A stretch of 32,000 nt of DNA from Acinetobacter wanghuae (GCF_009557235.1 NZ_CP045650.1:90001-122000); one strand, 5' to 3'; counted from the first letter of the stretch, positions 3,059 to 27,153 are shown. Program-made: numbers and translations. The notes: generated by a model not told the origin, from the letters alone.

Positions 3059-3355
3059 TTAGACATCGCATAAAGAACAATTTACACCGCGGCAATTATG
3101 TAAAACGGAGCTGCGTGCGCTATTTTTAGTGGTTCCCGGACCTTCAACTAAAGGACCTGCCAGTTGTTCAGCACCTGAACCGGGGCGCCATTTTGTTTTC
3201 ATATTAATTTGTTGATGACCAGTGATCATCGGTTTTGCCAAAGTTTGCTGCTGACAATAACTACATTCAATCGTATCTGTTGAAATGCGAGCAATCGGTA
3301 CACGCTGTTCAAAAATCCCCTCGCAATGTTCACAGCGGAAATCGTATAACGGCAT
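3059..3355 (-). CDS. fmdB: FmdB-family zinc-ribbon putative regulatory protein
   Basis: 98 aa with a CxxC...CxxC ribbon at the N-terminus (YDFRCEHCEG ... ECSYCQ). It lies directly downstream of a formamidase gene, as with fmdA-fmdB of Methylophilus. Confidence 0.75.
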   Translation of the reverse strand: MPLYDFRCEHCEGIFEQRVPIARISTDTIECSYCQQQTLAKPMITGHQQINMKTKWRPGSGAEQLAGPLVEGPGTTKNSARSSVLHNCRGVNCSLCDV

Positions 3356-3460: not shown

Positions 3461-4639
3461 TTAACGTCTGCGTCCCCAGAATTTATCATCATTGAGTGCA
3501 CCTTTAGGCAAGATGTCTTGCTCAAAGATCGAGGTCGGTAAAGACACCGTACATGCACAGTTTGGAATATCTACGATACCGCCGATACGACCTTCAACAG
3601 GTGCAGCAGTCAGCAGCATGTAAGCTTGAGAACCTGTAAAACCAAAGTTTTCAAGATATTTAATCGCTTTCAAACACGCTTGACGGTAGGCAACAGTTGC
3701 ATCTAAATAGTAGTTCACGTCATTTTCAACGCTAATACCTTCAAACGTTAACCATTGGTCATAGTTTGGTTTCACATTACTTGGCACAAAGATTGGAGAA
3801 TCGATGTTGTATTTCGCCATCCCGCCTTTGATCAGGTCAAAGCCAACACGGGTTACACCGTCCATTTCAATGGCACCACAGAAACCGATTTCGCCATCCC
3901 CTTGTGAGAAGTGAAGGTCACCCATCGAGAAGCCGGCGCCCTTTTGGTAAACAGGGAAGTAGATTCGGCTACCTGCGGCTAAATCTTTAATATCGGTATT
4001 ACCCCCATGTTCACGTGGCGGTACAGTACGTGCAGCTTCTGCCGCCATACGATCAAATTCAGCACCCGATACACCGCGAAGCACCGCAGTACGTGGATCA
4101 GGCGGGTTGGCTTGACCTTTAGGGACAAGTAAAGCTTCACGACGATTCCATTCTTTTAATAAGTCATGAGATGGCAGCGTACCCATTAAACCCGGGTGCT
4201 TTAAGCCTGCAATACGAACGCCTGGAATGTGACGTGAGGTTGCGAACAAACCTTTTAAATCCCAGATCGCTTTATCAGCTTCAGGGAAATAATCTGCAAG
4301 GAAGCCGCCACCGTTTTCTTTGGCAAATACACCCGAGAAACCAACATCTGAAATGGGTTGAATATCGAGTAGGTCGATTACCAATAAGTCACCTGGTTCA
4401 GCGCCTTCCACATAGAAAGGTCCTGTCAGGGGATGCGCACGTGTTAAATCGACATTTTTAACATCAGAAACATCATCTGTATCTTTAATTTGGGCATCAA
4501 GGAAGTCCAAACTTTCAATCAGAATCTCTTCCCCTGGCTTTACAGAAGTCAAAAACGGCAAATCAGGATGCCAACGGTTATGACCAATCTCCGCTTGTTC
4601 AGCCAGCGGAACCCCCGGTTTAATTTTGATGTGTTGCAT
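3461..4639 (-). CDS. fmdA: formamidase / acetamidase-family amidohydrolase
   Basis: 392-aa ORF. Acetamidase/formamidase-family signatures seen by eye (HNRWHPDLP near the N-terminus, REHGGNTDIKDL). It sits with fmdB and an amide/urea ABC importer. Confidence 0.85.
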   Translation of the reverse strand: MQHIKIKPGVPLAEQAEIGHNRWHPDLPFLTSVKPGEEILIESLDFLDAQIKDTDDVSDVKNVDLTRAHPLTGPFYVEGAEPGDLLVIDLLDIQPISDVGFSGVFAKENGGGFLADYFPEADKAIWDLKGLFATSRHIPGVRIAGLKHPGLMGTLPSHDLLKEWNRREALLVPKGQANPPDPRTAVLRGVSGAEFDRMAAEAARTVPPREHGGNTDIKDLAAGSRIYFPVYQKGAGFSMGDLHFSQGDGEIGFCGAIEMDGVTRVGFDLIKGGMAKYNIDSPIFVPSNVKPNYDQWLTFEGISVENDVNYYLDATVAYRQACLKAIKYLENFGFTGSQAYMLLTAAPVEGRIGGIVDIPNCACTVSLPTSIFEQDILPKGALNDDKFWGRRR

Positions 4640-4670
4640 GTTCCCATCCCCTATGTGAGGTCAAATAAAT

Positions 4671-5795
4671 TTAGTTTTTGCTGTTATCGTCTGTACCGTT
4701 GTTGTGTGAAGTGCTGTCTTCAACTTCCTTGACATGCTCAATGGCACGGACATTTATTCCTTGGGCATCACAATCAATAATGATGTGACTTGCTTCAGGG
4801 TGTTGGATAAAAAATTTGGCTAATTTGGGTTCAACTAAAACACGGAAACGGCGACCTAGTCCGCGTGCGCCAAAACGGACATCATGTCCAGTCGATAAAA
4901 ATGCATTGGCTGTTGCGGTCAGCTCAATGGTTCGACTTTGTTTACGTAAACGGTGATTGAGTTTCTCAACTTCTAAATCGACTAAGGTGCCTGCAAAGTC
5001 AGCTTCGACCGCTTGGTAATGCAAGATTCGTTCGATACGGTTTAAAAACTCAGGATCAAATTTCTTATGCAGTGCTTTATTGGTAATTTCGCTGTCATCG
5101 AGTTTGCTAAAACGTGCCAATTTTTGCAGTGGCTTCGGTAGTTTTGCCAATTGCTTTAAACGTGTCTGCGCATCTTTCGCGCCGACATTACTGGTCATAA
5201 AGATCATGCAGTTTTTAAAGTCGAGAACTTTGGTTCCTGCGGTGAGTTTTAGTGTTCCTGTTTCTAAAACATTCATTAAACCGCGAATCACTTCGGTACT
5301 GGCTTTTTCAATTTCATCAAACAGTACAATGCCGGGTTTTGAAAAACTGCCTTGAATGGCGGCTTCATCAAAAAGTGTATTGCCTTCTTTAGAACCGACA
5401 TAACCTGGAGGTGCACCTGTAAGGGCTGCTGCATAATGTTCTTGTGCCAAAGTGTTCATATCAATTCGGCAAAACGCATCAGGTTTACCGTGAATGGCTT
5501 CTGCAATCAGGCGTACAGTTTCGGTTTTACCGACACCTGTTGGACCAAGCATTAAAGTGACCGATAGTGGTCGATTGGGTGAGTTAAAGTCAGCTTTAAC
5601 CGTCACCAACATATTTTCAATTTCGTCCAACGCTTCGCTTTGTCCAATGATTCGGTCACGCACATGCTGCATGACCAAATCTGGATCAAAACTAAAGCGA
5701 GAGGTACGTGCAATACGTTCTTTGCTTTGCATCTCGTAACGTTGCTTGGCCAAAGTCTCTTGGTTGGCGCTGATGCGGTCACTGGCAAATGTCAT
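4671..5795 (-). CDS. amiB: AAA+ ATPase, ClpA/ClpB D2-like (AmiB-like)
   Basis: 374 aa with Walker A GPTGVGKTE, Walker B IVLFDEIEKA and a sensor/arginine region FGARGLGRR. GGAGG RBS before the ATG. Its position right after amiE and its size parallel amiB of the Pseudomonas aeruginosa amiEBCRS operon. Confidence 0.75.
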   Translation of the reverse strand: MTFASDRISANQETLAKQRYEMQSKERIARTSRFSFDPDLVMQHVRDRIIGQSEALDEIENMLVTVKADFNSPNRPLSVTLMLGPTGVGKTETVRLIAEAIHGKPDAFCRIDMNTLAQEHYAAALTGAPPGYVGSKEGNTLFDEAAIQGSFSKPGIVLFDEIEKASTEVIRGLMNVLETGTLKLTAGTKVLDFKNCMIFMTSNVGAKDAQTRLKQLAKLPKPLQKLARFSKLDDSEITNKALHKKFDPEFLNRIERILHYQAVEADFAGTLVDLEVEKLNHRLRKQSRTIELTATANAFLSTGHDVRFGARGLGRRFRVLVEPKLAKFFIQHPEASHIIIDCDAQGINVRAIEHVKEVEDSTSHNNGTDDNSKN

Positions 5796-5826: not shown

Positions 5827-6870
5827 TTAAGATGCTTCTTTTTCTAAACCTTCATGGGGTAAATTCCCGATCGGGCATTCCGCAACACCAATGGTTGAAC
5901 GGGTGATTTTCTCCACATCTTCTTGTGCTTTTTGCGCATCCAAGACCCAAGTTTTGTAGAAATCAAATGGGCAGTCTGCAACGCCTTTATCACCATCACC
6001 GTTGGTATGAACGCCTGTGTAGCCACGGTGTAAGAGTTTGAATAAATGGTTTTGTGATTGATCGTATTTACGTGCGTCACGAATTTCGTGTAGTGACAAT
6101 TGCGCGTATTGGATGCCGTTTTCTTCTGTGCCACATTCACCTAGCGTACGACCATCGAAGCCAATTACAGATGAATGACCGAAGTAAGTGTAAACGCCGT
6201 CAAAGCCTGTACAGTTCGCGACAGCAACATAGACGTTATTTGCCCATGCCATACTTTTTGACATATTCACTTGCTGTTCTGCGGCAGGGTACATATAGCC
6301 TTGGCAACGCACCACAAGCTCCGCACCTTTCATCGCGCAGTCACGCCAAATTTCAGGGTAGTTACCATCGTCACAAATGATCAGTGACATCTTGATGCCT
6401 TTCGGACCTTCAGTCACATAAGTGGTATCGCCTGGGCACCAACCTTCAATTGGGCACCACGGAATAATTTTGCGATATTTTTGAACGATTTCACCTTTGT
6501 TATTAATCAAGATTAAGGTGTTATAAGGCACTTTATTTGGGTGTTCTTCGTGTTGTTCACCTGTAATTGAGAACACGCCCCATACATTGGCTTCAATACA
6601 TGCTTGAGAGAAAATTGCAGTTTCATCACCCGGAATGGTGGCAGCGGTTGTCATCATTTCATCATGGTCGTACATAATGCCCATGGTGCTATATTCAGGG
6701 AAAACAATCAGGTCCATACCTGGAATACCTTGTTTAATCCCTTTCATCATTTCAGCAATTTTTTTTGCGTTCTCAAGAACTTCGGCTTTGGTGTGTAAAC
6801 GCGGAATCTTGTAGTTTACAACTGCTACACCCACTGTATTTGGACTACTTGAGATATCACCATGACGCAT
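5827..6870 (-). CDS. amiE: aliphatic amidase (nitrilase superfamily)
   Basis: 347 aa. It begins [21 protein letters not shown] and has the catalytic Cys context [11 protein letters not shown] and Glu context FPEYS. This closely resembles AmiE of Pseudomonas/Helicobacter as I remember them. GGAGA RBS. Confidence 0.92.
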
Positions 6871-7050
6871 TTACATTCTCCAACTTCTTACATTTAAATC
6901 AAATCTATAGTCAGAGTGTTGCGTGAAATGCTGTTTTAAAAAATACGTTGAATTGCGTATATGAATGCGTATTTAAAGCTGATTTTTATGTGTGAATATT
7001 CTTGTAATTTGGAAATGATTGATGTAGAAAAATGATGCGATCATGCCATG

Positions 7051-7113: not shown

Positions 7114-7812
7114 TTACACAGATAGATATTTACTAATCGTGGTTTCATCTACATTGGCACGGATATCTTCATAAGCAAAACGTCCTTTATCAATTACTAA
7201 GAAGCGATCTGCCATGGCCATGGTGAAACTCAAGACCTGTTCAGAAACCACAATGGTCAAATCACGTTTATCTCGAATCTCTTTTAATGTTTTGGCAATG
7301 TCCTTGATGATTGAAGGTTGAATCCCTTCGGTTGGTTCATCTAAAAGAAGCACTTTAGGATTGGTTGCCAAAGCACGTGCAATCGCAAGCTGCTGCTGTT
7401 GACCACCTGATAAGTTACCACCTTTACGCTTACGCATATCCCAAAGCACAGGAAACAGTTCATACAGGTCATCGGGCACTTTACCGTGAGCAGAAGCAGG
7501 TAATCCTGTCTGGATATTTTCAAGTACAGACATGGTCGAGAAAATCATACGACCTTGCGGCACGTAAGCGACGCCATTTTCAACACGTTGGTAAGGATCA
7601 AGTTTCTCAAGATTCTTACCATCAAGCTTAATTTCACCTTTGGTATTTTTAATATCACCAATTAGGGTTTTAAACAGGGTGGTTTTACCCATACCGTTAC
7701 GACCCATGATCGCAACGATTTCTTTGGGCTGAATTTTAATATCAAGATCATGAATGACCTGACTTTGTTTATAACCTGAACACAAAGAATTTATTTCGAA
7801 TAATCCGCTCAT
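7114..7812 (-). CDS. urtE: urea/short-chain amide ABC transporter ATP-binding protein UrtE-like
   Basis: 232 aa with Walker A GRNGMGKTT, signature LSGGQQQQ and Walker B LLLDEP. It is LivF-like and is the last gene of a five-gene Urt-type importer. Confidence 0.85.
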   Translation of the reverse strand: MSGLFEINSLCSGYKQSQVIHDLDIKIQPKEIVAIMGRNGMGKTTLFKTLIGDIKNTKGEIKLDGKNLEKLDPYQRVENGVAYVPQGRMIFSTMSVLENIQTGLPASAHGKVPDDLYELFPVLWDMRKRKGGNLSGGQQQQLAIARALATNPKVLLLDEPTEGIQPSIIKDIAKTLKEIRDKRDLTIVVSEQVLSFTMAMADRFLVIDKGRFAYEDIRANVDETTISKYLSV

Positions 7813-7821
7813 ATGGCCTCC

Positions 7822-8580
7822 TTAGTGTCCTAGATAGACTTCAATCACTTTTGGATCATTTTGAACATCGTCCATTTTTCCTGCTGCCAAGATTCTACCT
7901 TGGTGAAGAACGGTCACTTTGTCTGCGATGGTTTTAACGAACTCCATATCGTGCTCAATCACGAGCACTGAACGTCCTTGGCTAATTTTTTTCAACAGTT
8001 GCGCGGTTTGTTCACGCTCTGAGACACTCATGCCTGCCACAGGTTCATCCAGCATCAAAAGTTCAGGATCTTGCATGAGTAACATACCAATTTCGAGCCA
8101 TTGCTTTTGACCATGAGACAGCAAACCTGCAGGCGTATCGAGTAAGTCAGTCAGAAAAATCATCCCTGCGACTTCCTGAATACGGTCTTCAACGTCTTTA
8201 GTTCGTTTAAAGAACAGCGCACCAAAGACATTACGACCACGCGGGAATGACATTTCTAAGTTGTCATACACTGATAGATTTTCGTAGATATTGGGGTTTT
8301 GGAATTTACGCCCCACACCCTTACGCACAATGTCGAACTCTTTGAGTTTGGTGAGTTCGATATCGTTGAATTTAATAGTGCCTGAAGTAGCTTTGGTTTT
8401 ACCGCAGATTAAATCCAGCACGGTGGTTTTGCCTGCACCGTTTGGTCCAATGACCACGTGTACTTCGTTTTTGTCCAAGTAGAAGTTAAGGTCGCTGACG
8501 GCTTTGAAGCCGTCAAATGAAACTGTGAGATCTTCAATGACAAGGACAGGTTTTGTCATTTCTACGCCGACTTTACTCAT
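7822..8580 (-). CDS. urtD: urea/short-chain amide ABC transporter ATP-binding protein UrtD-like
   Basis: 252 aa with Walker A GPNGAGKTT, signature LSHGQKQ and Walker B LMLDEP. Its start overlaps the urtC stop in an ATGA junction (8577-8580), which suggests translational coupling. Confidence 0.85.
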   Translation of the reverse strand: MSKVGVEMTKPVLVIEDLTVSFDGFKAVSDLNFYLDKNEVHVVIGPNGAGKTTVLDLICGKTKATSGTIKFNDIELTKLKEFDIVRKGVGRKFQNPNIYENLSVYDNLEMSFPRGRNVFGALFFKRTKDVEDRIQEVAGMIFLTDLLDTPAGLLSHGQKQWLEIGMLLMQDPELLMLDEPVAGMSVSEREQTAQLLKKISQGRSVLVIEHDMEFVKTIADKVTVLHQGRILAAGKMDDVQNDPKVIEVYLGH

Positions 8581-9740
8581 TTGACACCTCCTTCTACAAC
8601 GGGCTCTGGGATATCTTCAGGGTCATTAGCTGGTGGTGGGGTAGGCTTGTCTGCTACCTTCTTTTTGAGGAAGAGCGGACGCACATATTTTTGATATACA
8701 CCTGCTAAACCATCTGGAAGGAACATCACTACGAAGATGAACAAACCACCGAGTAAGAATAACCATAATTCAGGGAAGGCTTCAGAGAAGTAAGTTTTAC
8801 CAAGGTTTACGAGTACAGCACCGTAAACGGCGCCAATTAGAGATAAACGACCACCGACAGCAGCAAGAATGACCATCTCAATAGAAGGCACAATGCCAAT
8901 AATAGTCGGTGACATAAAGCCGACTTGAAGGGTAAACATCGCGCCACCAATAGAAGACACAACTGCTGCAAAGCAGAAGATGAACACTTTGTACATCGCC
9001 ACGTCATAGCCTGAGAAACGGACGCGTTCTTCTTTATCACGCATTGCAGAAAGGAGACGCCCCAGTTTAGAGCTAAGAACAAAACGGCTGATCATGATCA
9101 CTGCAATTAAGAGCAGGGCATTGATGTAGTAAAGCACGTATTTTGCCTCGTCCGTACGAATGTCCCAGCCATGTAATGTTTTAAGGTCTGTAATCCCGTT
9201 AATACCGCCTGTGAAACCTTGTTGACCAATAATCAAGATGGTGAGAATTGCGACAATGGCTTGCATGATGATTGAGAAGTACACATCACCGACACGGCGG
9301 GTAAACATCGCAAAACCAATAATGAAGGCAAGCAAAATCGGAATAATAATGATGGCAAACAGGGTAAAGCCAAAGCTATGGAAGGGCTCCCATAACATGG
9401 GCAGACTGGTGATTTGGTTCCAGTCCATAAAATCGGGAATACCCGGTGTGGTTTGTGCCGCAGTACTTTGCATGTCTGAAGCTTCGAGCTTTAAGAACAT
9501 GGCCATGCAGTAACCGCCAATGCCAAAGAAGATGCCTTGACCTAAACTTAAGATCCCACCATGCCCCCAGCACAGCACAAGACCAATTGCCACGAAAGCA
9601 AAAGTGAGATATTTACCCATCAAATTGAGACGGAAAATATCTAAAAACATGGGCATTACAAGAAGAATCAGTACAGCAAGAATGGCAAGTCCGATCGCCC
9701 CTTCTTTACCGCCTAAAAATGCGTTTGCTAAATTTTTCAT
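8577..9740 (-). CDS. urtC: urea/amide ABC transporter permease UrtC-like
   Basis: 387 aa, polytopic and LivM-like. Proline-rich C-terminal tail. Position within the urtABCDE order. Confidence 0.85.
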   Translation of the reverse strand: MKNLANAFLGGKEGAIGLAILAVLILLVMPMFLDIFRLNLMGKYLTFAFVAIGLVLCWGHGGILSLGQGIFFGIGGYCMAMFLKLEASDMQSTAAQTTPGIPDFMDWNQITSLPMLWEPFHSFGFTLFAIIIIPILLAFIIGFAMFTRRVGDVYFSIIMQAIVAILTILIIGQQGFTGGINGITDLKTLHGWDIRTDEAKYVLYYINALLLIAVIMISRFVLSSKLGRLLSAMRDKEERVRFSGYDVAMYKVFIFCFAAVVSSIGGAMFTLQVGFMSPTIIGIVPSIEMVILAAVGGRLSLIGAVYGAVLVNLGKTYFSEAFPELWLFLLGGLFIFVVMFLPDGLAGVYQKYVRPLFLKKKVADKPTPPPANDPEDIPEPVVEGGVK

Positions 9741-9757
9741 AATTTCTCTCCTGAATC

Positions 9758-10678
9758 CTATTTACGAACTTTGATTGAGAAGAGACCTTGAGGACGCAGC
9801 ATCAAGATGATGATCACAGTCGCCAAAGTAATGACTTTTGCCACAGAACCGGACAAGAAGAATTCTAAAATCGATTGTGCTTGCGCAATGCTAAATGCTG
9901 AGGCAATTGTACCCAGTAAACTCGCTGCACCGCCAAAGACCACCACAAGGAAGGTATCGACAATATAAAGTGAACCGGCGGTTGGACCTGTAGAACCAAT
10001 CGTGGTAAATGCAGCGCCTGCGATCCCTGCAAGACCACAACCTAGTGCAAAAGTCAGACTATCTACACGTTTGGTGTTGATGCCGACAGCACCACTCATA
10101 AAGCGGTTTTGGTTGGTTGCACGTAGTTGTAGACCCCAACGTGAACGGTAAATCAGGAAATAAACAAAAGCAGTTACAGTTAACGTCACACCGACCAAGA
10201 ATAATCCATTAATTGGAATATCAATGGTTTCTGTGGGTTGATACGAACCCATCAACCAATCTGGCAGGGTCGGGCTGACTTCTTTAGGGCCAAAGACAGA
10301 ACGGAAAAGCTGTTGCATGATGAGACTTAAGCCCCATGTTGCAAGCAGGGTATCAAGTGGTCGTTGATAAAGCCGGCTAATCATCAGCCGTTCGACCATG
10401 TAGCCAATAATGCCTGCGGTAAGAAATGCGGCGATAATCGCAATCAGGAAGTAATAGGGTAAAAGTTGTGGGAAGAAACTTTCAGTTAAGGTTGAAATGA
10501 AAAAAGTGGTATAGGCGCCAATGGTCAGGAATTCACCATGTGCCATGTTAATGACACCCATTTGCCCAAAGATAATTGCAAGGCCGAGTGCCATCAATAA
10601 CAGCACACAGAACACAGAGAGACCATTAAAGCCTTGCATGGCAAAAATTGCACCGAATTCAGCAAATGAAATATCCAT
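9758..10678 (-). CDS. urtB: urea/amide ABC transporter permease UrtB-like
   Basis: Polytopic LivH-like permease. I prefer the ATG at 10678 (MDISFAEF...), which is preceded by GGAGGA, over the TTG at 10693 that opens the tracked ORF. Confidence 0.85.
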   Translation of the reverse strand: MDISFAEFGAIFAMQGFNGLSVFCVLLLMALGLAIIFGQMGVINMAHGEFLTIGAYTTFFISTLTESFFPQLLPYYFLIAIIAAFLTAGIIGYMVERLMISRLYQRPLDTLLATWGLSLIMQQLFRSVFGPKEVSPTLPDWLMGSYQPTETIDIPINGLFLVGVTLTVTAFVYFLIYRSRWGLQLRATNQNRFMSGAVGINTKRVDSLTFALGCGLAGIAGAAFTTIGSTGPTAGSLYIVDTFLVVVFGGAASLLGTIASAFSIAQAQSILEFFLSGSVAKVITLATVIIILMLRPQGLFSIKVRK

Positions 10679-10759
10679 CGCATCATCCTCCAAGCTTTAA
10701 AATTGTGTGGAATAAAAAGATCAGGAGAATGGCTTTCCCCTGATCATGTGGCTGTTAAA

Positions 10760-11998
10760 TTAGTAACCTTTAGGGAATGGGTTTGGTTTGATTAAACCTT
10801 TAGACTCGTAAACGACTTTAAACTGACCGTTGGTTTGTACTTCGGCAATACGTGATTTGCTCCATAAGTGATGGTTCGGGTCGATTTTCACATAGCCTTC
10901 AGGCGCAGTTTTCATCTCTAAACCTTTAGAAGCCGCTGTCACTTTCGCGACATCGAAGCTACCTGCTTTTTCAACCGCAGCTTTCCATAACCATGGACCT
11001 AAGTAAGCCGCTTGCGTTACGTCACCGATCACGGCTTTAGGACCATATTTCGCTTTAAACGCTTTTACGAACGCTTGGTTATTCGGGTTATTCAGGCTTT
11101 GGAAGTACTTCATTGAAGAGTAGAAGCCCTTCATGTTTTCGCCGCCAATACCGAGCAACTCATCTTCAGTGACAGACAATGTAAGCAGAGTTTGTTTGTC
11201 ACCTGTGACACCCGCTGCTTTCATTTGTTTGTAGAAGGATACGTTTGAACCACCCACAACAGCAGCGAAGATTGCATCAGGTTTTTTTAACTTGGTTTTA
11301 TTAATCAGTGAACCGAATTGCGTATGACCTAATGGATAGTATTCTTCACCGACTACTTTACCTTTCAATACTTTTTCGATGTGCGTACGTGCAATTTTCA
11401 TTGTGGTACGTGGCCAAATATAGTCAGAACCAATCAAATAGAAAGTCTTGGCTTTTTTCACTGAAGATAACCAGTTCAGTGCCTCAAGTACCTGTTGAGT
11501 CGCTTCCTGACCTGTATAGATGACATTTTTAGATTGCTCTAAACCCTCATAGAAGGTTGGGTAGTAAAGCAATGAGTTGTTACGCTCAATAATTGGCAAT
11601 ACAGCTTTACGTGATGCAGATGTCCAACAACCAAAGATGGCAGCCACGCGGTCTTTTTCAGAGAGCTTACGTGCCTTTTCTGCAAATGTTGGCCAGTCAG
11701 ATGCACCATCTTCTTGAATGATTTTGATCTGGCGACCGAGGATACCGCCTTGTTTATTAATCTGTTCAATGGCTAAACGTTCTGCTTGAATCGAACCTGT
11801 TTCAGAGATTGCCATGGTGCCTGTTGCTGAGTGCAACTGACCGACGTAAACGAATTTATCGTCTACTTTAAGTTTGGTGGTATTCACTTTAGCGGTTGCA
11901 GGAACACTTGCGTTTGTCAGCATTGGTGCAAGTAAGAATGGAACGGCAAGTACACCTGCAAGTAGCCCTGAGGTTTTTACTTTTGCTTTTAAAGTCAT
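10760..11998 (-). CDS. urtA: periplasmic urea/short-chain amide-binding protein (UrtA / FmdD-like)
   Basis: 412 aa with a signal peptide (LLAGVLAVPFLLAPMLTNASV). Type I periplasmic binding fold of the LivK/AmiC family. First gene of the importer. Confidence 0.85.
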   Translation of the reverse strand: MTLKAKVKTSGLLAGVLAVPFLLAPMLTNASVPATAKVNTTKLKVDDKFVYVGQLHSATGTMAISETGSIQAERLAIEQINKQGGILGRQIKIIQEDGASDWPTFAEKARKLSEKDRVAAIFGCWTSASRKAVLPIIERNNSLLYYPTFYEGLEQSKNVIYTGQEATQQVLEALNWLSSVKKAKTFYLIGSDYIWPRTTMKIARTHIEKVLKGKVVGEEYYPLGHTQFGSLINKTKLKKPDAIFAAVVGGSNVSFYKQMKAAGVTGDKQTLLTLSVTEDELLGIGGENMKGFYSSMKYFQSLNNPNNQAFVKAFKAKYGPKAVIGDVTQAAYLGPWLWKAAVEKAGSFDVAKVTAASKGLEMKTAPEGYVKIDPNHHLWSKSRIAEVQTNGQFKVVYESKGLIKPNPFPKGY

Positions 11999-12095: not shown

Positions 12096-12121
12096 GCATA
12101 TACGTCACTTTACGTATATGC
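12096..12121. promoter_or_regulatory. perfect 10+10 bp inverted repeat in the urtA / sensor-kinase divergent promoter region (candidate operator)
   Basis: GCATATACGT-cacttt-ACGTATATGC. The core CGTATATG recurs upstream of amiE (6956-6963). A second palindrome, GGCTTAAGCC, lies at 12066-12075. Confidence 0.45.
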
Positions 12122-12206
12122 CTCTGTATAGCCATGCTTTTAGATACTGTTAGGCTGGGCATGGTTTTTGCTTTAAAGAGCAGATATTGATGAATGTTTG
12201 ACTGTC

Positions 12207-15200
12207 ATGCAACCAGATGCCCATTCGAGCCAAGCACCGCAGCGCGTGATTCCAACCCGACGTAAATACAATACGTGGGTGGTCGATGAAAGTATTGAAG
12301 ATTATGCACTTCGCTATGCGCCAAAATCGGTACGCAAATGGTCACTGTGGACAGTCACCAATACTGCCATTGCCGCGGTCAGTTTCCTTGCAATGGAAGC
12401 ATTGGGCGCAACCATGCTTTGGCAATATGGTTTTAGTAATGCATTTTGGGCATTACTGGTGGTATCGCTGATTATTTTTCTGACCAGTTGGCCAATTGCT
12501 TACTATGCCGCACGCTATAACGTGGATATTGATTTACTGACCCGTGGTGCAGGTTTTGGCTACATTGGTTCGTCTATTACATCGGTCATCTATGCCAGTT
12601 TTACCTTTATCTTTTTTGCCTTTGAAGCCGCCATTATGGCTTTGGCATTGGAACTGGGTTTAGGCTTGCCGTTAAGCATTGGTTACTTGGTGTCTTCACT
12701 GATTGTGTTACCACTAGTAGTGAAGGGCATTGGTTTCATCAATAAAGTACAAGCATTCACGCAACCCATTTGGTTATTCTTATTATTATTACCGTGGTGC
12801 TTTGTTTTGGTGAAGCATCCGAGTTTGGTACATGAGCTTGCACTTATAGAGGGCGTAAAATCCAATACTGCATCCTTTAATTTGGCATTTTTTGGTGCAT
12901 CTTGTACCGTTCTATTTGCTTTGATTACCCAAATTGGTGAGCAGGCCGATTATTTACGCTTTTTACCTGATAAAAAAAAGATTAAAAATAAATGGAACCT
13001 TGCCGTCTTCTTAGGTGGACCTGCATGGATTTTGGCAGGCTTTGCTAAGATTTTTATGGGTATGCTGTTGATGGCATTGGCACTCAAGTTTTTTGTGCCG
13101 AATAGCGAATTGACTGATCCAAACTACTTATATTGGATCGCGTTTCAACAGGTTGTGGCTCATCCCGGAGTTGCTTTATTTCTGACGGTACTCTTTGTCT
13201 GTATTGCACAAATTAAAATTAATGTCACCAATGCCTATGCAGGTTCACTCGCATGGTCAAACTTCTTTGCGCGGTTAACCCATAGCCATCCTGGTCGCGT
13301 GGTATGGCTGGTATTTAATGTTTTTATCGCGTTACTGCTCATGGAGCTGGGCGTCATTCATGCTGTAGAACGGGTTTTAGGTTTATATAGTAATGTTGCC
13401 TTGGCTTGGGTGGGGGCGATTGTTGCAGACTTAATCATTTGTAAGCCTTTGGGCTTAAGTCCTAAAGGAATCGAATTTAGACGTGCTTATTTATATGATA
13501 TTAATCCTGTCGGTGTAGGAAGCCTCTTTATTGCATCAAGTTTATCTTTGCTCTGCTACTGGGGGATTTTTGGCGAGATTGCTCAATCATTGGCGGGCTT
13601 TATTGCACTCGGCACTTCCATGCTCTGTGTACCGTTTATCGCCTACATGACCAAAGGCAAATATTATCTTGCGCGCAAAGAAAAACCTGCATTGTCCTGT
13701 GTTGAAACTCAAACCTGTGTGGTCTGTGAGCATGATTATGAAGTGGCGGATATGGCAAGTTGTCCTGCTTATAACAGTCATATTTGTTCGCTCTGCTGCA
13801 CCTTAGAAGCGCGTTGTCATGACTTATGTAAGCCGCATGCGCGTTGGTCATCTCAACTTCGAGTTTTTGCGACATGGTTCTTACCCAAATATTGGGTGCA
13901 ATATATCAATACACGTTTAAGCCTGTATATCTTGCTGTTGTTGGTGTTGGGTATCGTTTTGGCAGTGAGTTTGAGTCTGATTTATTTGCAAGAGCTTTCA
14001 AGTACGGGCTATTCTTTTCAGCAGCAGGATGCCTTACTCACGCTATTCATTAAAATTTATGCGGTTTTATTTTTATTACTCTGCGTCGCTGCATGGTGGC
14101 TCGTGCTCAATGATGAAAGTCGTCGTCAGGCACAGCAGGAAAGTAATACCCAAACCCAGCTGCTGATGGATGAGATTGAAGCGCATAAAATTACCGATCG
14201 TCAATTACAGGATGCGCGCATACAAGCTGAAAAAGCCAATGAAGCTAAAAGTCGTTATGTGATTGGCATTAGTCATGAATTGCGAACGCCGTTGAACAGT
14301 ATTTTGGGATATAGCCAACTCTTACAAAAACAAGAACAACTCTCGGACAAAGGAGAAGCTGCACTAGGAGTGATTAGTCGAAGTGGTCAGCATCTGACTT
14401 CGCTGATTGATGGATTGCTTGATCTAGCGCGAATTGAAACGGGGAAAATTTCTTTAGAAAGTTCCAATATTGATTTTCCAAAATTTCTGAATCAAATCGT
14501 GCATATGTTTGAACCACAATTCATGCAAAAGCAGCTCGATTTTCAGGTCTTCATTAGCAATAAAATTCCACAATATGTACGTACCGATAAAAAGCGCCTT
14601 GAACAAGTGCTGATTAATATTTTAGGCAATGCGCTGAAGTTTACCGTTTCGGGTCGGGTCACTTTTAAAGTCGAGTATCGTTTTCAAACGGCTTATTTTG
14701 AGATTCAGGATACAGGGTGTGGCATTGCAGAAGATGATATCGAACGTATTTTTCAGCCTTTTGAACGTGGTCATAACGTCATACAAGGCAGCTTTGCAGG
14801 CACAGGTTTAGGACTACCGATTGTGAAATTGTTGGTGGATATTTTGGGTGGCGAACTCAAGATGAACAGCCAATTGAAACAAGGTTCAGTCTTTAAAATC
14901 AAACTGTATTTACCATCAAAATCTCTGATTCACCCCATTGCAGATGTCGCATCCAATACCGTGGTTGGCTATAGCGGTCAACGCCGTAAAATTTTAGTCG
15001 TTGATAACGAACTGACGGATCGTGGTCTAGTGCTCAACTTCTTGCAACCTTTAGGCTTTATTTTGGAAGAGGCGGAGTCAGGTTTGGAATGTTTGCGCAA
15101 AGTCCCTGTTTTTCAGCCAGATTTAATATTAATGGATTTGAGTATGCCGATGCTCGGGGGGTGGGAAACGGCAAAATTATTGCGTAAAAACAAAATCACC

Positions 15201-15662
15201 AATGTCCCCATTATTATCATTTCAGCCGATGCCAACGAGCGTATGCAAAACCCTGAAACCGATGTGCTGAATGAAGATTTTTTGGTAAAACCTGTTGATT
15301 TGAATCTGCTGCTCAATAAAGTCGGCGACAAACTTGGCTTAAGTTGGATTCATCAGCATGAAGATGAACATGTGCCTGAAATCTATTTGCCGATCCAGCC
15401 AAATTTTGAGGACATTATCGATCCGATTCAGATTGAGCCCGTACAAAAGCCTAATCCCTTAACACTGAAAGAAGCGATGCAGCAATTGGAACAGCATTTA
15501 AGTATTGGTTATATCCGCGGTGCAAAAGAGCAATTGGCGCAATGTATGCAAGATTTTAGTCAGCATCAGGAACTATGGGCTCAGATTGAACAAGATTTAA
15601 AACAGTTTGATTTTAAGACATCCATTCAGCGTTTGCAGCAGCAAAACAATGCATTGGAATAG
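12207..15662 (+). CDS. hybrid sensor histidine kinase/response regulator with an N-terminal NCS1 (purine-cytosine permease-like) membrane domain
   Basis: The tracked ORF opens at TTG 12198; the first ATG is 12207. About 12 hydrophobic helices carry NCS1-like motifs (DLLTRGAGFGYIGS, ADYLRF, NVTNAYAGSLAWSNF; compare CodB LLARFSFGVKGS, ADFVRF, NDNALYASGLGFANI). A Cys-rich segment follows (aa 501-544, numbered from the tracked ORF at 12198), then 2 more TM helices and a coiled coil. The kinase core is HisKA (ISHELRTPLN, His693) plus an HATPase (DTGCGI, GTGLGL). The receiver domain has LILMDLSMP (Asp980) and a helical tail follows. Confidence 0.88.
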   Translation: MQPDAHSSQAPQRVIPTRRKYNTWVVDESIEDYALRYAPKSVRKWSLWTVTNTAIAAVSFLAMEALGATMLWQYGFSNAFWALLVVSLIIFLTSWPIAYYAARYNVDIDLLTRGAGFGYIGSSITSVIYASFTFIFFAFEAAIMALALELGLGLPLSIGYLVSSLIVLPLVVKGIGFINKVQAFTQPIWLFLLLLPWCFVLVKHPSLVHELALIEGVKSNTASFNLAFFGASCTVLFALITQIGEQADYLRFLPDKKKIKNKWNLAVFLGGPAWILAGFAKIFMGMLLMALALKFFVPNSELTDPNYLYWIAFQQVVAHPGVALFLTVLFVCIAQIKINVTNAYAGSLAWSNFFARLTHSHPGRVVWLVFNVFIALLLMELGVIHAVERVLGLYSNVALAWVGAIVADLIICKPLGLSPKGIEFRRAYLYDINPVGVGSLFIASSLSLLCYWGIFGEIAQSLAGFIALGTSMLCVPFIAYMTKGKYYLARKEKPALSCVETQTCVVCEHDYEVADMASCPAYNSHICSLCCTLEARCHDLCKPHARWSSQLRVFATWFLPKYWVQYINTRLSLYILLLLVLGIVLAVSLSLIYLQELSSTGYSFQQQDALLTLFIKIYAVLFLLLCVAAWWLVLNDESRRQAQQESNTQTQLLMDEIEAHKITDRQLQDARIQAEKANEAKSRYVIGISHELRTPLNSILGYSQLLQKQEQLSDKGEAALGVISRSGQHLTSLIDGLLDLARIETGKISLESSNIDFPKFLNQIVHMFEPQFMQKQLDFQVFISNKIPQYVRTDKKRLEQVLINILGNALKFTVSGRVTFKVEYRFQTAYFEIQDTGCGIAEDDIERIFQPFERGHNVIQGSFAGTGLGLPIVKLLVDILGGELKMNSQLKQGSVFKIKLYLPSKSLIHPIADVASNTVVGYSGQRRKILVVDNELTDRGLVLNFLQPLGFILEEAESGLECLRKVPVFQPDLILMDLSMPMLGGWETAKLLRKNKITNVPIIIISADANERMQNPETDVLNEDFLVKPVDLNLLLNKVGDKLGLSWIHQHEDEHVPEIYLPIQPNFEDIIDPIQIEPVQKPNPLTLKEAMQQLEQHLSIGYIRGAKEQLAQCMQDFSQHQELWAQIEQDLKQFDFKTSIQRLQQQNNALE

Positions 15663-15666
15663 GGGA

Positions 15667-16593
15667 ATGAGCATGTTAGAAAGTATTTTGATTGTTGATG
15701 ATATTCCTGAAAACTTAAGCTTACTGCATGAAAGTTTAGATCAGGCAGGCTATCAGGTTTTAGTCGCAACCAATGGCTTTAGTGCGATTGAAATTGCCCA
15801 TCGCTCGCAACCCGATATGATTTTGCTTGATGGCAGCATGCCTGAGATGGATGGCTTTGAAACCTGTTTGCAGCTTAAATCGAGTCCGATGACCGAGCAT
15901 ATTCCTGTGATCTTCATGACAGGCTTAACGGAAACTGAACACATCTTAAAAGGCTTTCAAGTTGGCGGGGTCGATTATGTCACCAAGCCTTTAAACATTG
16001 ATGAAGTACAAGCGCGCGTCAAAACGCATCTTTTACAAGCGCGTTTAATGCATCAACAAAAACAAATGTTAGATGCAACGGGGAGTGCAATTGTGTCATT
16101 AAACTTAAATGGAGAAATGATTTGGCAAACGCCGGTTGTCAGTGAGCTATTAAAAAGACATGAAATTGATCTCGAACATTTTCAAAAGAGTTTAAATATA
16201 TGGCTACAAGACTTACTAAAACAGCCAGACCAAGCGCATTTCATCCATGGTCAATATGGACATCAACAGCATCAGTTACAGCTCAATTTACTGACGCCCA
16301 TGGACGGCAATCGGGTTTTTAAACATGTTCTGGTTCAACTGAAAGAACAAACCCAAATGCCAAGCGCAGAGGAGATTGCACAAGCATGTCCAACCTTAAC
16401 CCCACGTGAAGCAGAGGTCATGCATTGGGTGACGATGGGTAAAACCAACCGTGATATTGCTGAGATTTTGCAGCTCAGTCCGCGTACAGTGAATAAGCAT
16501 TTAGAGCATGTATTTGAGAAGCTGTTTGTGGAAACGCGTACCGCTGCGGTGTTGCATGTAACGTCGGCTTGTCAGAATCAGGCGGTTGCTTAA
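15667..16593 (+). CDS. response regulator, REC + central domain + LuxR/FixJ-type HTH
   Basis: REC motifs are ILIVDD, MILLDGSMPEMDG and VTKPL. The C-terminal LuxR HTH reads LTPREAEVMHWVTMGKTNRDIAEILQLSPRTVNKHLEHVFEKL. The tracked ORF start (15607) overlaps the kinase. The ATG at 15667 or 15673, just after the kinase stop and AGGGG, is more plausible. Confidence 0.88.
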   Translation: MSMLESILIVDDIPENLSLLHESLDQAGYQVLVATNGFSAIEIAHRSQPDMILLDGSMPEMDGFETCLQLKSSPMTEHIPVIFMTGLTETEHILKGFQVGGVDYVTKPLNIDEVQARVKTHLLQARLMHQQKQMLDATGSAIVSLNLNGEMIWQTPVVSELLKRHEIDLEHFQKSLNIWLQDLLKQPDQAHFIHGQYGHQQHQLQLNLLTPMDGNRVFKHVLVQLKEQTQMPSAEEIAQACPTLTPREAEVMHWVTMGKTNRDIAEILQLSPRTVNKHLEHVFEKLFVETRTAAVLHVTSACQNQAVA

Positions 16594-16657: not shown

Positions 16658-17359
16658 TTATAGCTCTGTAGTGTCATTCCATAAAAAATAACCCCCATAT
16701 TGACTTGGGCGATATTCACCACCTTTTAATTTTCCTTCGTCTGTTAAAAAGTGCTTTCCATTTTCATTGAGTTTTAGAAAACCTTTCTCAACCAGTTTTT
16801 CGAGAAGATCAGCAGTTTTGAGTTTATGTTTAGCAGCAAGTTTTGATGTGGTTAATTTGCTGAAGTTATTTTCATCTTCATTATCTGTTTCTTCTGTAGT
16901 TGCTGTCTGTTTAACAGCATCAAGCGTGATTCGAACTTCTTCACTAATACGAATAATTCGCTGCGCTTCTTCATACGCATCTTTAAAGACGTCATCATCT
17001 TCATATTTGCGGACAGAAATTCCCATTTCATTATTATTGACTTGGCTAAACTCATAAAGGTTTAAGCTTGAAATAATACATTCAGATTCATTGAGATAGC
17101 ATTTGGCATGTAAGTTCTTACAAAAACTAAGACGAACATAGTCCAGTTTCTGAATCCATTTGATCTCTTCAGGATGTAAGTCACTTTTACCATAGACAAT
17201 ACGGACGTCAATCTTCAGACGATCTTTGTCTTCTAAAAGTTCTTTAATACGATCATTAAGACGTAAATAAGGACTGATGAGAATTAAACGCTCTTTGGCA
17301 TTTTTGATGAGTTCTTCTAAGAAGAAATTCGTTGCGCTCGTGTTTAAGAACTTAGCCAT
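16658..17359 (-). CDS. phospholipase D-family (HxK) nuclease-like protein with an acidic linker and a small basic C-terminal domain
   Basis: 233 aa with a single HKD-type motif, NLHAKCYLNESECIISSLNL (H-x-K-x4-E ... S-S-x-N), as in Nuc/BfiI-type PLD nucleases. No signal peptide. An acidic linker (TEETDNEDENN) is followed by a ~70-aa Lys/Gly-rich tail. A hand count of one 100-nt stretch gave 34 G+C. Confidence 0.7.
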   Translation of the reverse strand: MAKFLNTSATNFFLEELIKNAKERLILISPYLRLNDRIKELLEDKDRLKIDVRIVYGKSDLHPEEIKWIQKLDYVRLSFCKNLHAKCYLNESECIISSLNLYEFSQVNNNEMGISVRKYEDDDVFKDAYEEAQRIIRISEEVRITLDAVKQTATTEETDNEDENNFSKLTTSKLAAKHKLKTADLLEKLVEKGFLKLNENGKHFLTDEGKLKGGEYRPSQYGGYFLWNDTTEL

Positions 17360-19122: not shown

Positions 19123-19664
19123 GAAATTCTTACCCCCAAAGAAAGCAGAATAAGCATACAGATTAATAAGTAAAAATAAAGTGTGATTCGACCATCGAAC
19201 GAAAAATATTCGAAAAATGGCTTATGGTCGTATGTTTTATCAGCAGATTTACTGGTGTTTAGCATAAGTTACAGCTAAATCTCATTCATCAAAATATCTT
19301 AAAAGTAAGCGTGCTTGCCATGCAGACCTATTTTTTAGATTAAAAAACCTGAATTGGTTTACATAAAAAGGCAAAGTGGGGCATTGTTTGAAGGTCAAGT
19401 TATGGCTTGAGTAAGGAGTTGTCACATCACGTTATGCTTTTGCTAAAAATCTAAAAATACTGCTTGCAAAATTTTCAGATACAGCCGATATTCGAAGTAT
19501 AAGGACACCGTTCTGCAGACTCAAAAAAGTGTTCATCATTCAAAGTGGAGGGTAACGACCAAAACGACTTGAATAAATGAAATGCGATATAAAACAGTAA
19601 TCTATAAGTGTGCCAAGTGAAAAACTTTGCACAAAAAAGTTACAAAGATTGAGGATGGTAATTT

Positions 19665-20024
19665 ATGAACATTGAGCTTCGTACAGATAAAAATATTCAA
19701 AATAGTGATCGTCTAATTGCATACGTAAATGCCGAATTAAATCAAGAATTCCAACGCCACAGTGAGCGTATTACCCATTTCTCAGTTCATCTTAGTGATG
19801 AAAACGGTCCCAAAGGTGGCGCAGAAGATATTCGCTGCATGATTGAAGCACGTCCAGCAGGCATTAAACCTGTCGTAGTGAATCATCGCGGTCATAATAT
19901 TGCGACTGCTATTCACGGTGCAATTGATCGCCTTAAACGCAGTATCGAGCATGCAATTGAGAAAAAAGACAATGTGCGCACCACGCCACTCGAATTAGCG
20001 CCTGAAGCTGACATTGAACAATAA
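19665..20024 (+). CDS. HPF/RaiA-family ribosome-associated protein (short form)
   Basis: 119 aa. The pattern MNIELR...LIAYVNAEL...ITHFSVHLSDENGPKGGAEDIRCMIEARPAG...AIHGAIDRLKRSIE fits the S30EA / sigma-54 modulation protein fold family. GAGGA RBS. Confidence 0.65.
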   Translation: MNIELRTDKNIQNSDRLIAYVNAELNQEFQRHSERITHFSVHLSDENGPKGGAEDIRCMIEARPAGIKPVVVNHRGHNIATAIHGAIDRLKRSIEHAIEKKDNVRTTPLELAPEADIEQ

Positions 20025-20040
20025 AGAATAGATTCTTATA

Positions 20041-20062
20041 AAAGCCCTGCGGGGCTTTTTTT
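20041..20062 (+). terminator. intrinsic terminator after the HPF-like gene
   Basis: AAAGCCC-tgcg-GGGCTTT followed by TTTT. Confidence 0.8.
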
Positions 20063-20152
20063 ACATAAAAAACAAATATAGTTGGCTTAGGCGAAAACAA
20101 AATCCTGTTTATTCGGCATAATAGCCGAAAACGAATTGAAGTGAGTTCCATC

Positions 20153-25716: not shown

Positions 25717-25874
25717 GTTATTTCCGTCTTTTTATGCTTATATTGCAATTGTGGATTATTTACCAAGAATATTTACAAGGTTACACTAAATAGTCACACG
25801 CAAAAATTGAATAATTGTTGTGACTTTTTAATACTACATTGGTCTACTCACCAGACTTAGGGAAATAAACAAAA

Positions 25875-26312
25875 ATGAAAAAAATTGCGCTCGCTTTAGG
25901 ATTATTAGGTTTAACCGCATTTGCCAATGCAGCTGATCCTTTAAATGGCACAGTATGGAAAACAATTGATGACAAGACCAATCAACCCAAAGCCATTGTA
26001 AAATTTACTGAACAAAAGAACGGCACATTGTCTGCTAGCATTCAACAGGTCTTAACGCCAGGTGAAGAAAAAGCATGTTCAAAATGTGAAGGTCCATTCC
26101 ACAACAAATCTTTAAAAGGCTTAACCATTGTTAAAGGTTTGAAAAATAAAGGTGGAACACAGTATGCAGACGGTCAAATTCTTGACCCAAGCTCTGGCAA
26201 AACATACAAACTTAAAGGTAATGTTGCTGAAGGTGGCAATAAACTCGAACTTCGCGGCTTCATCGGTGTGGCAGCGTTAGGTCGTAACCAAACATGGATT
26301 CGTGCAAACTAA
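25875..26312 (+). CDS. DUF2147 domain-containing periplasmic protein
   Basis: 145 aa with a signal peptide (LTAFANA). Characteristic GQILDPSSGKTYKLKG ... LELRGFIGVAALGRNQTWIR. Confidence 0.75.
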   Translation: MKKIALALGLLGLTAFANAADPLNGTVWKTIDDKTNQPKAIVKFTEQKNGTLSASIQQVLTPGEEKACSKCEGPFHNKSLKGLTIVKGLKNKGGTQYADGQILDPSSGKTYKLKGNVAEGGNKLELRGFIGVAALGRNQTWIRAN

Positions 26313-26330
26313 TGTGCATGAAGCTCATCA

Positions 26331-26359
26331 AAAAAGCCTGACAGATGTCAGGCTTTTTT
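26331..26359. terminator. bidirectional intrinsic terminator (DUF2147 gene / yffB-like gene)
   Basis: AAAAAGCCTGAC-agat-GTCAGGCTTTTT. Confidence 0.85.
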
Positions 26360-26387
26360 ATATGTACTTTATACAGATGTGTATGAT

Positions 26388-27095: not shown

Positions 27096-27153
27096 TGATA
27101 TAAGCATGATTTAAATCTACAAATGCGTCTTGTGATGTAAGCCATTGACTGTA

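Follow-up and report, generated by a model that had tools for sequence, protein, structure and literature searches.

A hybrid histidine kinase of Acinetobacter wanghuae with a permease-like input domain, proposed as a sensor of urea and short-chain amides

A stretch of 32,000 nucleotides from Acinetobacter wanghuae (GCF_009557235.1 NZ_CP045650.1:90001-122000), referred to here as the window, carries on its plus strand a gene for an inner-membrane hybrid histidine kinase with a permease-like input domain. The kinase is proposed to sense urea and short-chain amides (formamide, acetamide) for a dedicated two-component system, which would control the adjacent urt-ami-fmd gene cluster; a probability of about 0.6 is assigned to this reading. 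In soil, in water and in hosts, urea and small amides count among the major sources of nitrogen.

Architecture of the protein

The open reading frame starts at ATG 12207, with an alternative TTG at 12198, and its stop codon is at 15660-15662. An initial annotation, made from the sequence alone, gave a product of 1154 amino acids; the reading frame is real and that length fits the TTG start, with ATG 12207 giving 1151 amino acids. An identical public protein of A. wanghuae exists under no names other than 'ATP-binding protein' and 'hybrid sensor histidine kinase/response regulator'. A chance reading frame is excluded, because searches found the N-terminal module in no fewer than 7,900 database proteins, and the genomes of at least 594 species encode it.

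An AlphaFold2 model of amino acids 1-655 was built from 14 homologues (pLDDT 74.7, pTM 0.72). It places ~12 transmembrane (TM) helices within amino acids ~47-481, in line with the ~12 helices that the initial annotation had seen in the first ~490 residues. The two extra helices, coiled coil, HisKA-HATPase and receiver that it listed behind them agree with the model and with Pfam. A domain with eight cysteines, between helix 12 and the extra hairpin, was absent from that annotation. The gene is divided as follows.

12207..15662, plus strand: hybrid sensor histidine kinase gene, whole open reading frame including the stop codon (list of open reading frames)
12252..12317, plus strand: conserved N-terminal helix, cytoplasmic, ahead of TM1 (amino acids 16-37, RR.YN.WV..E..EDYALR; conservation, model)
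12324..13652, plus strand: 12-helix LeuT-fold membrane domain, presumed ligand-binding input (amino acids ~40-482; AlphaFold2, Foldseek, hhalign, motifs, relative P0240)
13707..13841, plus strand: eight-cysteine domain (amino acids ~501-545; eight invariant cysteines, beta-rich models)
13914..14108, plus strand: extra transmembrane hairpin, helices 13 and 14 (amino acids ~570-634; AlphaFold2 model)
14109..14246, plus strand: signalling helix or coiled coil, from helix 14 to the kinase core (amino acids ~635-680; model, conserved motif)
14247..14444, plus strand: HisKA dimerisation and phospho-acceptor domain, H-box SHELRTPLN (amino acids 681-746; Pfam PF00512, E 2.6e-17)
14586..14912, plus strand: HATPase_c catalytic domain (amino acids 794-902; Pfam PF02518, E 3.8e-24)
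14991..15323, plus strand: fused receiver domain, Response_reg (amino acids 929-1039; Pfam PF00072, E 5.9e-18)
15324..15659, plus strand: C-terminal tail with a putative HPt-like helix that has Tyr in place of the phospho-His (amino acids 1040-1151; conservation)

The N-terminal helix is modelled as helical at low pLDDT and has invariant residues at R18, R19, Y21, N22, W24, V25, E28 and E31-R36.

Relation of the membrane domain to NCS1 permeases

Simple searches give no family for the membrane domain. The N-terminal ~650 amino acids have no Pfam match, PF02133 (Transp_cyt_pur) included, even at E ≤ 10, and the HMMER comparison with PF02133 that had been suggested in the initial annotation was thus negative for the query. 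Scans of the N-terminal 645-655 amino acids produced no NCBIfam match, and HMMER searches against PDB sequences were empty with the single sequence and the family profile alike. The Pfam families SSF and STAC have no match in the kinase protein or in the family members scanned.

When the model was compared with the PDB by Foldseek, ranks 1-5 were occupied by Mhp1 (2JLN, 4D1A, 2X79) and CodB (7QOA), with E values of 1e-6 to 6e-6 and TM-scores by target of 0.61-0.72. The model therefore displays a 12-helix LeuT fold nearest to the solved NCS1 structures, and the structure prediction that the initial annotation called for speaks in favour of its assignment. Nramp, DUR3, NIS, AdiC and vSGLT scored below NCS1; the margin is modest, the first four being 10-100 times weaker. 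The SSS structures (DUR3, NIS, CHT1, vSGLT, SiaT) stand at rank 8 or lower.

In profile comparisons with hhalign, the family profile was aligned with the single Escherichia coli CodB sequence at a probability of 37% when 14 sequences were used and 70.6% when 189 were used, in register over TM1-4. Controls in the same test gave 0.18% for PutP (SSS), 0.15% for MntH (Nramp) and 0.25% for AdiC (APC), and membership of the domain in the SSS, APC or Nramp families was rejected on comparison with CodB. AllW, a Fur-type NCS1 protein, was undetected (probability 1.6%).

The initial annotation had drawn a parallel between three motifs of the protein, at amino acids 109, 247 and 339, and motifs of CodB. 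The counterparts are real: they are found at positions 83, 212 and 280 of E. coli CodB, are collinear and are paired in the global hhalign alignment. A fourth shared motif is ADL/ADY in TM10. The motifs in common with CodB are LL.R..FG..GS in the TM2-3 loop, ADY/FxRF in TM6, N..Y..L...N in TM8 and AD in TM10.

A bridge to the curated families is provided by P0240, a 561-amino-acid relative without a kinase, which the family profile matches at 100% probability (hhalign, E 4e-60). P0240 aligns with model positions 34-418 of 440 in PF02133 at 17.9 bits (E 0.0014), the gathering score being 23.5 bits and the score of CodB itself 289 bits. It also matches the NCBIfam cytosine-permease model NF008241 at E 4.3e-9, and CodB in pairwise BLASTP at E 3e-4; in this way it links the kinase family to PF02133 and to the cytosine-permease model. 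Among 44 diverse family members P0240 is the sole match to PF02133, below the curated threshold, and PF02133 is the only transporter profile matched by any of the 44. The automatic JGI names of many homologues include 'purine-cytosine permease-like protein'. As fold, profile comparison, motifs and the P0240 bridge agree despite the negative simple searches, the membrane domain is, on these comparisons of sequences and models, a remote CodB-type NCS1 relative that lies outside the family by curated thresholds. The description 'NCS1 permease-like' in the initial annotation holds as a statement of remote relationship and fails as one of Pfam or NCBIfam membership.

The substrate site of CodB consists of an aromatic sandwich (Trp in TM3, Phe/Trp in TM6), and its Na2 site is formed by the N275 carbonyl and the hydroxyls of T278 and T279 (PMC9379551). 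In the hhalign register, W108 of CodB (the TM3 aromatic) is aligned with F136 (76% Phe) or F137 (94% Phe), and the equivalent of N280 is conserved in the kinase family. F204 in TM6 would correspond to L239 (92% Leu), the TM6 register coming from the low-confidence global alignment. N275, T278 and T279 would correspond to K337 (98%), V340 and T341 (94%), with one hydroxyl kept, in a TM6-8 register that is of low confidence as well. K337 might stand in for the Na2 cation. Family-specific invariant polar residues are T133, E140, Q242, E245, Q246, N339 and N342 in the alignment; the pattern as a whole would suit a small polar ligand.

From the cysteine domain to the response regulator

The cysteine domain displays the pattern C-x2-C-x11-C-x7-C-x2-CC-x5-C-x3-C, with eight of eight cysteines invariant. 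It is beta-rich in both structure models and spans amino acids 501-541 in the model of residues 1-655. The Pfam scan found nothing above noise in it, and Foldseek with the isolated domain gave no significant match (E ≥ 0.3); such weak resemblance as there is points in every case to binuclear zinc fingers (RING, FYVE, PHD, ZZ). The domain probably binds two zinc ions and is placed in the cytoplasm from the usual NCS1 topology and its basic flanks. It is kept in kinase-less relatives and is a candidate coupling element.

Two helices follow at amino acids 570-600 and 604-654 (pLDDT 79-90 in the AlphaFold2 model), with a very short periplasmic loop between them. The second is unbroken to amino acid 654 and leads into the coiled coil and HisKA. 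The coiled-coil region has the conserved motif ESRR.AQ.ES..QT.LL..EI.

HisKA, HATPase_c and Response_reg are all well over their Pfam thresholds, which makes the protein a hybrid kinase. Its kinase and receiver motifs are intact, and the conserved kinase boxes are SHELRTPLN, NAlkfT, DtG.GI and GtGLGL. In the tail, the conserved motif L..L......GY..G....LD resembles the phospho-His helix of an HPt domain, with Tyr at the expected His position. Hpt has no Pfam match in the kinase protein or its tail (a separate HPt gene was not searched for), and the Pfam scan of the tail rose nowhere above noise. Because no HPt is detectable and the tail has Tyr for the expected His, the fused receiver is more likely to tune the signal or act as a phosphate drain than to pass phosphate on.

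The gene immediately downstream encodes the cognate partner of the kinase, a LuxR/NarL-type regulator.

15667..16593, plus strand: response regulator with a REC domain, a ~120-amino-acid middle region and a LuxR/GerE DNA-binding domain, starting at ATG 15667 or 15673 (Pfam)

The Pfam scores are 1e-27 for Response_reg and 1.7e-18 for GerE; in the middle region (amino acids ~120-240) the Pfam scan found nothing above noise. Regulators at the equivalent position in Pseudomonas have 221-228 amino acids and are without the ~120-amino-acid middle region.

The divergent gene cluster and its conservation

On the opposite strand lies the presumed regulated target, and the divergent amidase, formamidase and urea-importer cluster reported in the initial annotation is borne out by UrtA-E, AmiE, an AmiB-like protein and FmdA.

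7114..11998, minus strand: urtABCDE-type ABC importer for urea and short-chain amides, presumed regulated target (NCBIfam UrtA-E above curated cut-offs, Pfam)
10760-11998, minus strand: urtA
9758-10693, minus strand: urtB
8577-9740, minus strand: urtC
7822-8580, minus strand: urtD
7114-7812, minus strand: urtE
5827..6870, minus strand: amiE, aliphatic amidase (NCBIfam NF009802, 688 bits, cut-off 427)
4671..5795, minus strand: amiB-like AAA+ protein of ClpB D2 type (Pfam AAA_2, ClpB_D2-small)
3461..4639, minus strand: fmdA, formamidase (NCBIfam NF045496, 546 bits, cut-off 500; Pfam FmdA_AmdA, 1.3e-163)
3059..3355, minus strand: fmdB-like zinc-ribbon open reading frame of 98 amino acids, starting MPLYDFRCEHCEGIFEQ (motif and position, no profile score)

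The start of the 98-amino-acid frame, MPLYDFRCEHCEGIFEQ, is an FmdB-type zinc-ribbon signature. In Pseudomonas loci a Zn_ribbon_8 gene comes after fmdA, and an AAA gene after the CN_hydrolase gene. The gene order is urtE-amiE-amiB-fmdA-fmdB in the window and urtE-fmdA-fmdB-amiE-amiB in Pseudomonas. The genes amiC, amiR and amiS are absent from the window.

Homologues of the kinase are widespread. An exhaustive profile search returned 2,306 representative clusters (50% identity) at E ≤ 1e-3, and nearly all listed homologues are hybrid kinases of ~1,120 amino acids with identical architecture. The species, at least 594, are mostly Burkholderiales, Rhodocyclales and Methylophilaceae, with Acinetobacter, Pseudomonas, Nevskia and Methylophaga also represented. 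The same membrane and cysteine module is found fused to PAS-GAF-GGDEF-EAL, to a SpoIIE/PP2C phosphatase and to long PAS/HPt kinases (P0131, P0226 and others); because of the GGDEF-EAL and SpoIIE fusions, it behaves as a portable sensor.

Gene neighbourhoods were surveyed in 80 species loci, over 10 kb around the kinase gene. A LuxR-type regulator gene is immediately downstream of the kinase in ~70 of the 80, the remainder being mostly truncated contigs. In about half of the loci a Urt-type ABC importer for urea/amides is encoded within this distance, and these loci form two classes. Class A (~20 of 80) consists of loci in which the ABC genes accompany a close orthologue of UrtA (68-81% identical); FmdA is usually encoded there too, and the arrangement mostly diverges from the kinase gene, as it does in the window. 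The full set of urtABCDE, fmdA, fmdB, CN_hydrolase and AAA genes is present in Pseudomonas sp. ABC1 and P. gingeri. Class B, also ~20 of 80, has a canonical UrtABCDE paralogue, whose UrtA is 40-45% identical and scores 550-602 bits on the UrtA model (cut-off 493). In six class B loci the regulator gene is directly followed by this paralogue on the same strand, with a porin intervening once.

Two side observations concern individual loci. In Nevskia (L022) a porin-like gene at 14511-15617 (plus strand) lies between the regulator and urtA and recalls the Methylophilus FmdC porin, which serves short-chain amides as well as urea. In A. baumannii (L088) a divergent neighbour of 538 amino acids at 8189-9805 (minus strand) is without a Pfam or NCBIfam match.

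Kinase-less relatives and the probable ligand

P0240 belongs to a branch with short forms (521-621 amino acids) that consist of the membrane domain and the cysteine domain. The context of this divergent branch is represented by six loci, and in five of the six the member adjoins genes for urease (P0287, P0290, P0291), urea carboxylase (P0286) or formamidase (P0288). P0288 precedes a formamidase gene (FmdA, 670 bits) by 36 bp, both being on one strand. Genes for allophanate hydrolase, at 775 bits, and for urea carboxylase, at 1,827 bits, are divergent from P0286. A nicO-ureABCEFGD urease operon ends with P0287, after a gap of 3 bp. P0290 and P0291 are divergent from urease and are followed by separate HisKA and HATPase-REC reading frames, in P0291 also by a LuxR-type regulator.

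Near urease on two independent metagenome contigs (L096, 6001-9573; L099, 1045-4453), the module, HisKA and HATPase plus REC are three overlapping reading frames. This arrangement is either a truly split kinase or a repeated frameshift pattern.

As three unrelated enzyme systems have urea or formamide as substrate, and in view of the Urt and Fmd links, the predicted ligand class is most likely urea and short-chain amides. The ancestral role of the membrane domain was, by the same comparative reading, most likely that of a urea/amide permease. As ligands, urea, formamide or acetamide are likelier than the cyclic ureides usual for NCS1. The initial annotation had suggested a sensor for an amide-type nitrogen or carbon source; this finds strong in silico support in the synteny, the operator described below and the contexts of the kinase-less relatives, while the cyclic NCS1-type ureides it also considered are less likely.

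Tentatively, the module may represent an unrecognised family of NCS1-derived urea/short-chain-amide permeases with a C-terminal zinc-binding domain. Its kinase-less members would be the missing secondary urea/formamide transporters of many urease, urea-carboxylase and formamidase operons. Those fused to a kinase, to GGDEF or to PP2C would be genuine transceptors, turning the binding or flux of urea and amides straight into a signal. On this reading the kinase would be the first NCS1-type transceptor and its system the first two-component system dedicated to sensing urea and amides.

A palindromic candidate operator

The divergent promoter region between urtA and the kinase gene has a perfect palindrome, and a related site is found upstream of amiE.

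12097..12122, no strand assigned: candidate operator O1, perfect palindrome GCATATACGT-n6-ACGTATATGC, in the divergent urtA/kinase promoter region
6944..6959, no strand assigned: operator-like site O2, ATATACGCAATTCAACGTAT on the minus strand, with one mismatch, ~75 bp upstream of amiE

The core of O1, TACGT-n6-ACGTA at 12101-12116, is the single exact match in the window and was seen in none of 100 shuffles. Related loci totalling 1.54 Mb contain 27 exact core matches, five Markov simulations none; a re-count that took in all 97 loci returned these 27 again, spread over 22 loci. Of these matches, 21 are 30-270 bp upstream of a kinase gene, in genomes that range from Acinetobacter through Pseudomonas to Burkholderiales. 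The consensus, TACGTCA-n2-TGACGTA, measures 16 bp and consists of inverted heptamers with a 2-bp spacer. This 7-2-7 layout is typical of sites for NarL/LuxR-type regulators. The window and 21 related loci have such a predicted site between urtA and the kinase gene, and it also occurs upstream of fmdA or amiE.

O2 is the only other operator match at up to one mismatch in the 32 kb. A relaxed 14-base operator with three mismatches gave only chance-level extras in the window, at 27124 and 27323, and a sigma-70 scan of the urtA-kinase intergenic region revealed no consensus promoter. Four Pseudomonas/Stutzerimonas loci have a second operator copy in the urtE-fmdA gap. Palindrome sites in loci L003, L034, L052 and L089 are at ~4380-4680 and ~9770-9930. 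Methylophilus sp. QUAN encodes the kinase with the operator upstream (L054).

Proposed mechanism and alternative explanations

In the proposed mechanism a small amide would bind to the permease-like domain in its central cavity, which is predicted to be lined by the invariant polar and charged residues T133, E140, Q242, E245, Q246, K337, N339 and N342, and may pass through. Binding or passage would bring about a rocking-bundle change with altered geometry of bundle and hash. The change would be transmitted by the cysteine domain and/or the TM13-14 hairpin and coiled coil to the DHp helices and kinase core. The phosphorylated regulator would then bind TACGTCA-n2-TGACGTA at 12101-12116 and the weaker copy at 6944-6959 upstream of amiE, and would activate urtABCDE-amiE-amiB-fmdA-fmdB, probably together with the kinase-regulator operon.

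Several points weigh against this proposal. Searches with the query found no curated transporter profile. In the predicted site the NCS1 aromatic sandwich would be half kept (F204 replaced by Leu) and one Na2 threonine replaced by Val, and the register from which the site residues are predicted is of low confidence. The cysteine domain could be the true sensor, for metal or redox. The co-occurrence survey suggested in the initial annotation, which found the importer near about half of the 80 loci, also found ~30 with no urea/amide genes within 10 kb. A homologue in A. baumannii, 70% identical, keeps the regulator with no urt or ami genes nearby, and the kinase-fused P0289 is beside flagellar genes. 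The operator is missing from most class B loci, those with the canonical Urt paralogue, and no palindrome common to seven class B loci and L096 was found upstream of the kinase; operator support is therefore confined to the class A arrangement, the window included.

The strongest alternative, less probable than the proposed mechanism yet well conceivable, is that the permease-like domain is a pure receptor for urea, an amide or another small solute, comparable to the transporter-derived sensors of Ssy1 type in yeast, and that UrtABCDE does all the uptake. It differs from the proposed mechanism solely on whether transport occurs. The neighbouring genes encode a dedicated ABC importer of high affinity, the module is fused to non-kinase outputs too, as a generic sensor domain would be, one Na2-site threonine and the TM6 aromatic would be lost in the low-confidence register, and the invariant K337 at a CodB Na2 ligand position could fill the cation site. 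On the other hand, the core motifs of the LeuT fold are extremely conserved, as expected with a full conformational cycle, and kinase-less relatives sit in urease and formamidase operons where a transporter gene would typically be, so that transport by the fold is probable in at least some members.

It is improbable that the membrane domain comes from another LeuT-fold family (SSS/SLC5, APC, Nramp), or that its likeness to CodB is convergent, in which case the NCS1 label and the inference of substrate would be wrong. The lack of a curated NCS1 profile at threshold on the query, the failure of hhalign to detect AllW and the Foldseek scores of Nramp, DUR3, NIS and AdiC, just 10-100 times weaker than those of NCS1, would be in keeping with such an origin. 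They are set against five top structural matches that are all NCS1, hhalign probabilities of ≤0.25% for the other families and 37-71% for CodB, PF02133 as the sole transporter profile matched together with the cytosine-permease model at E 4.3e-9, and four collinear motifs in TM2/3, TM6, TM8 and TM10.

There is little likelihood, also, that the urt-ami-fmd adjacency is incidental and the two-component system controls other genes. The ~30 loci that are without urea/amide genes, and the unrelated neighbours of the A. baumannii homologue and of P0289, are what would be expected if it were; against this, the 16-bp palindrome stands in the urtA-kinase gap from Acinetobacter to Burkholderiales (27 exact matches, 0 expected) and recurs upstream of amiE or fmdA, and the synteny is kept across classes.

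Very improbable is a signal of metal, redox or nitrogen status read by the cysteine domain (zinc, nickel, Fe-S, thiol oxidation) with the membrane domain a mere anchor: eight invariant cysteines do lie in the cytoplasm between input and kinase, and urease operons near relatives do include nickel functions (NicO, UreE/F/G), but no part of the protein is as conserved as the membrane domain, whose helices contain invariant polar residues that a passive anchor would not need, the cysteine domain is present also in kinase-less relatives within catabolic operons, its weak fold matches are structural zinc fingers, and of the three enzyme chemistries in the linked genes (urea, formamide, amide) only urease needs nickel.

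Other features of the window

Two further genes flank the system.

1121-3001, plus strand: parE, topoisomerase IV subunit B (PDB matches at E 1e-158)
16658-17359, minus strand: PLD-like (PLDc_2) protein of 233 amino acids, convergent with the regulator gene, with no evident link to the system

The region is regarded as chromosomal because parE is in the window; a plasmid or mobile origin was considered and rejected, the exact protein being present on a 2.77-Mb contig. Two segments of 1-1.5 kb each, 19123-20140 and 25717-27209, are without an open reading frame of at least 150 amino acids, a tRNA or an Rfam match, and the Rfam and tRNA scans of the window as a whole gave no matches.

Comparison with known systems

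The NCS1 permeases of CodB or purine-cytosine type (PF02133, COG1457; 7QOA, 2JLN) are like the membrane domain of the kinase in the 12-helix LeuT fold, and CodB is like it in the four motifs, the TM1-4 register and, in the low-confidence register of TM6-8, would share one Na2 threonine and the N280 equivalent. In contrast, CodB is without equivalents of E140, Q242, E245 and Q246, and the kinase domain would have Leu for the TM6 aromatic and K337 at the position of N275. The kinase protein adds the eight-cysteine domain, the extra hairpin and the kinase to the NCS1-like domain, and its likely ligand is acyclic rather than a nucleobase or hydantoin.

In Pseudomonas aeruginosa the amiEBCRS operon is controlled by AmiC and AmiR in response to short-chain amides, AmiC being a cytoplasmic binding protein that controls an antiterminator. 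Both this system and Methylophilus FmdB involve target genes of the same kinds as here (amiE, amiB, fmdA, urt/fmd transport) and short-chain amides or urea; what is cited for the fmd cluster of Methylophilus is no more than a 'putative regulator' (PMC10781810). Unlike AmiC/AmiR, the window, without amiC, amiR and amiS, has a membrane kinase and a LuxR-type regulator in that role.

Full-text searches of the literature, which leave subscription journals mostly outside so that an older account is possible, found no description of an NCS1-like sensor kinase; in the same literature neither an NCS1-type urea permease nor a urt/fmd two-component system is described. The family is large (at least 594 species, 2,306 clusters), yet has no Pfam or NCBIfam model. 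If the proposal is correct, induction of urt/fmd/ami clusters by urea and amides would be explained, a candidate class of secondary urea/formamide permeases would be at hand, and a compact set of sensor, regulator and operator would be available for urea- or formamide-responsive gene circuits.

Fusions of a transporter with a kinase are still regarded as rare (PMC11109136, PMC13022988). CbrA, CrbS/MxtR and RpuS are kinases fused to SLC5/STAC transporters (PMC13022988, PMC9100948). Like the kinase described here, CbrA-type proteins have an N-terminal LeuT-fold transporter domain joined by a small cytoplasmic coupler to a histidine kinase, and they control uptake and catabolism genes for the nutrient sensed, as is proposed here. 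STAC-mediated coupling has been proposed for CbrA (PMC13022988), in parallel to the coupling suggested for this kinase. The components differ: CbrA-type kinases have an SSS/SLC5 transporter, the STAC four-helix-bundle coupler and PAS domains, whereas this kinase has the eight-cysteine domain and TM hairpin and no PAS; their partner regulators are of NtrC or other types, and its partner is of LuxR/NarL type. In Ks-Amt5 (PMC5764959) the fold of a nitrogen-source transporter also feeds a fused histidine kinase, with an Amt/Rh channel fold rather than LeuT, another ligand and no cysteine domain. The remark in the initial annotation that known transporter-kinases use SLC5 and not NCS1 is consistent with the searchable papers, the Amt-kinase being one further type. 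New here are the different transporter lineage, the different coupling domain and the defined candidate regulon; if the proposal is correct, an NCS1-like branch joins SLC5 and Amt among the bacterial transporter-kinase fusions.

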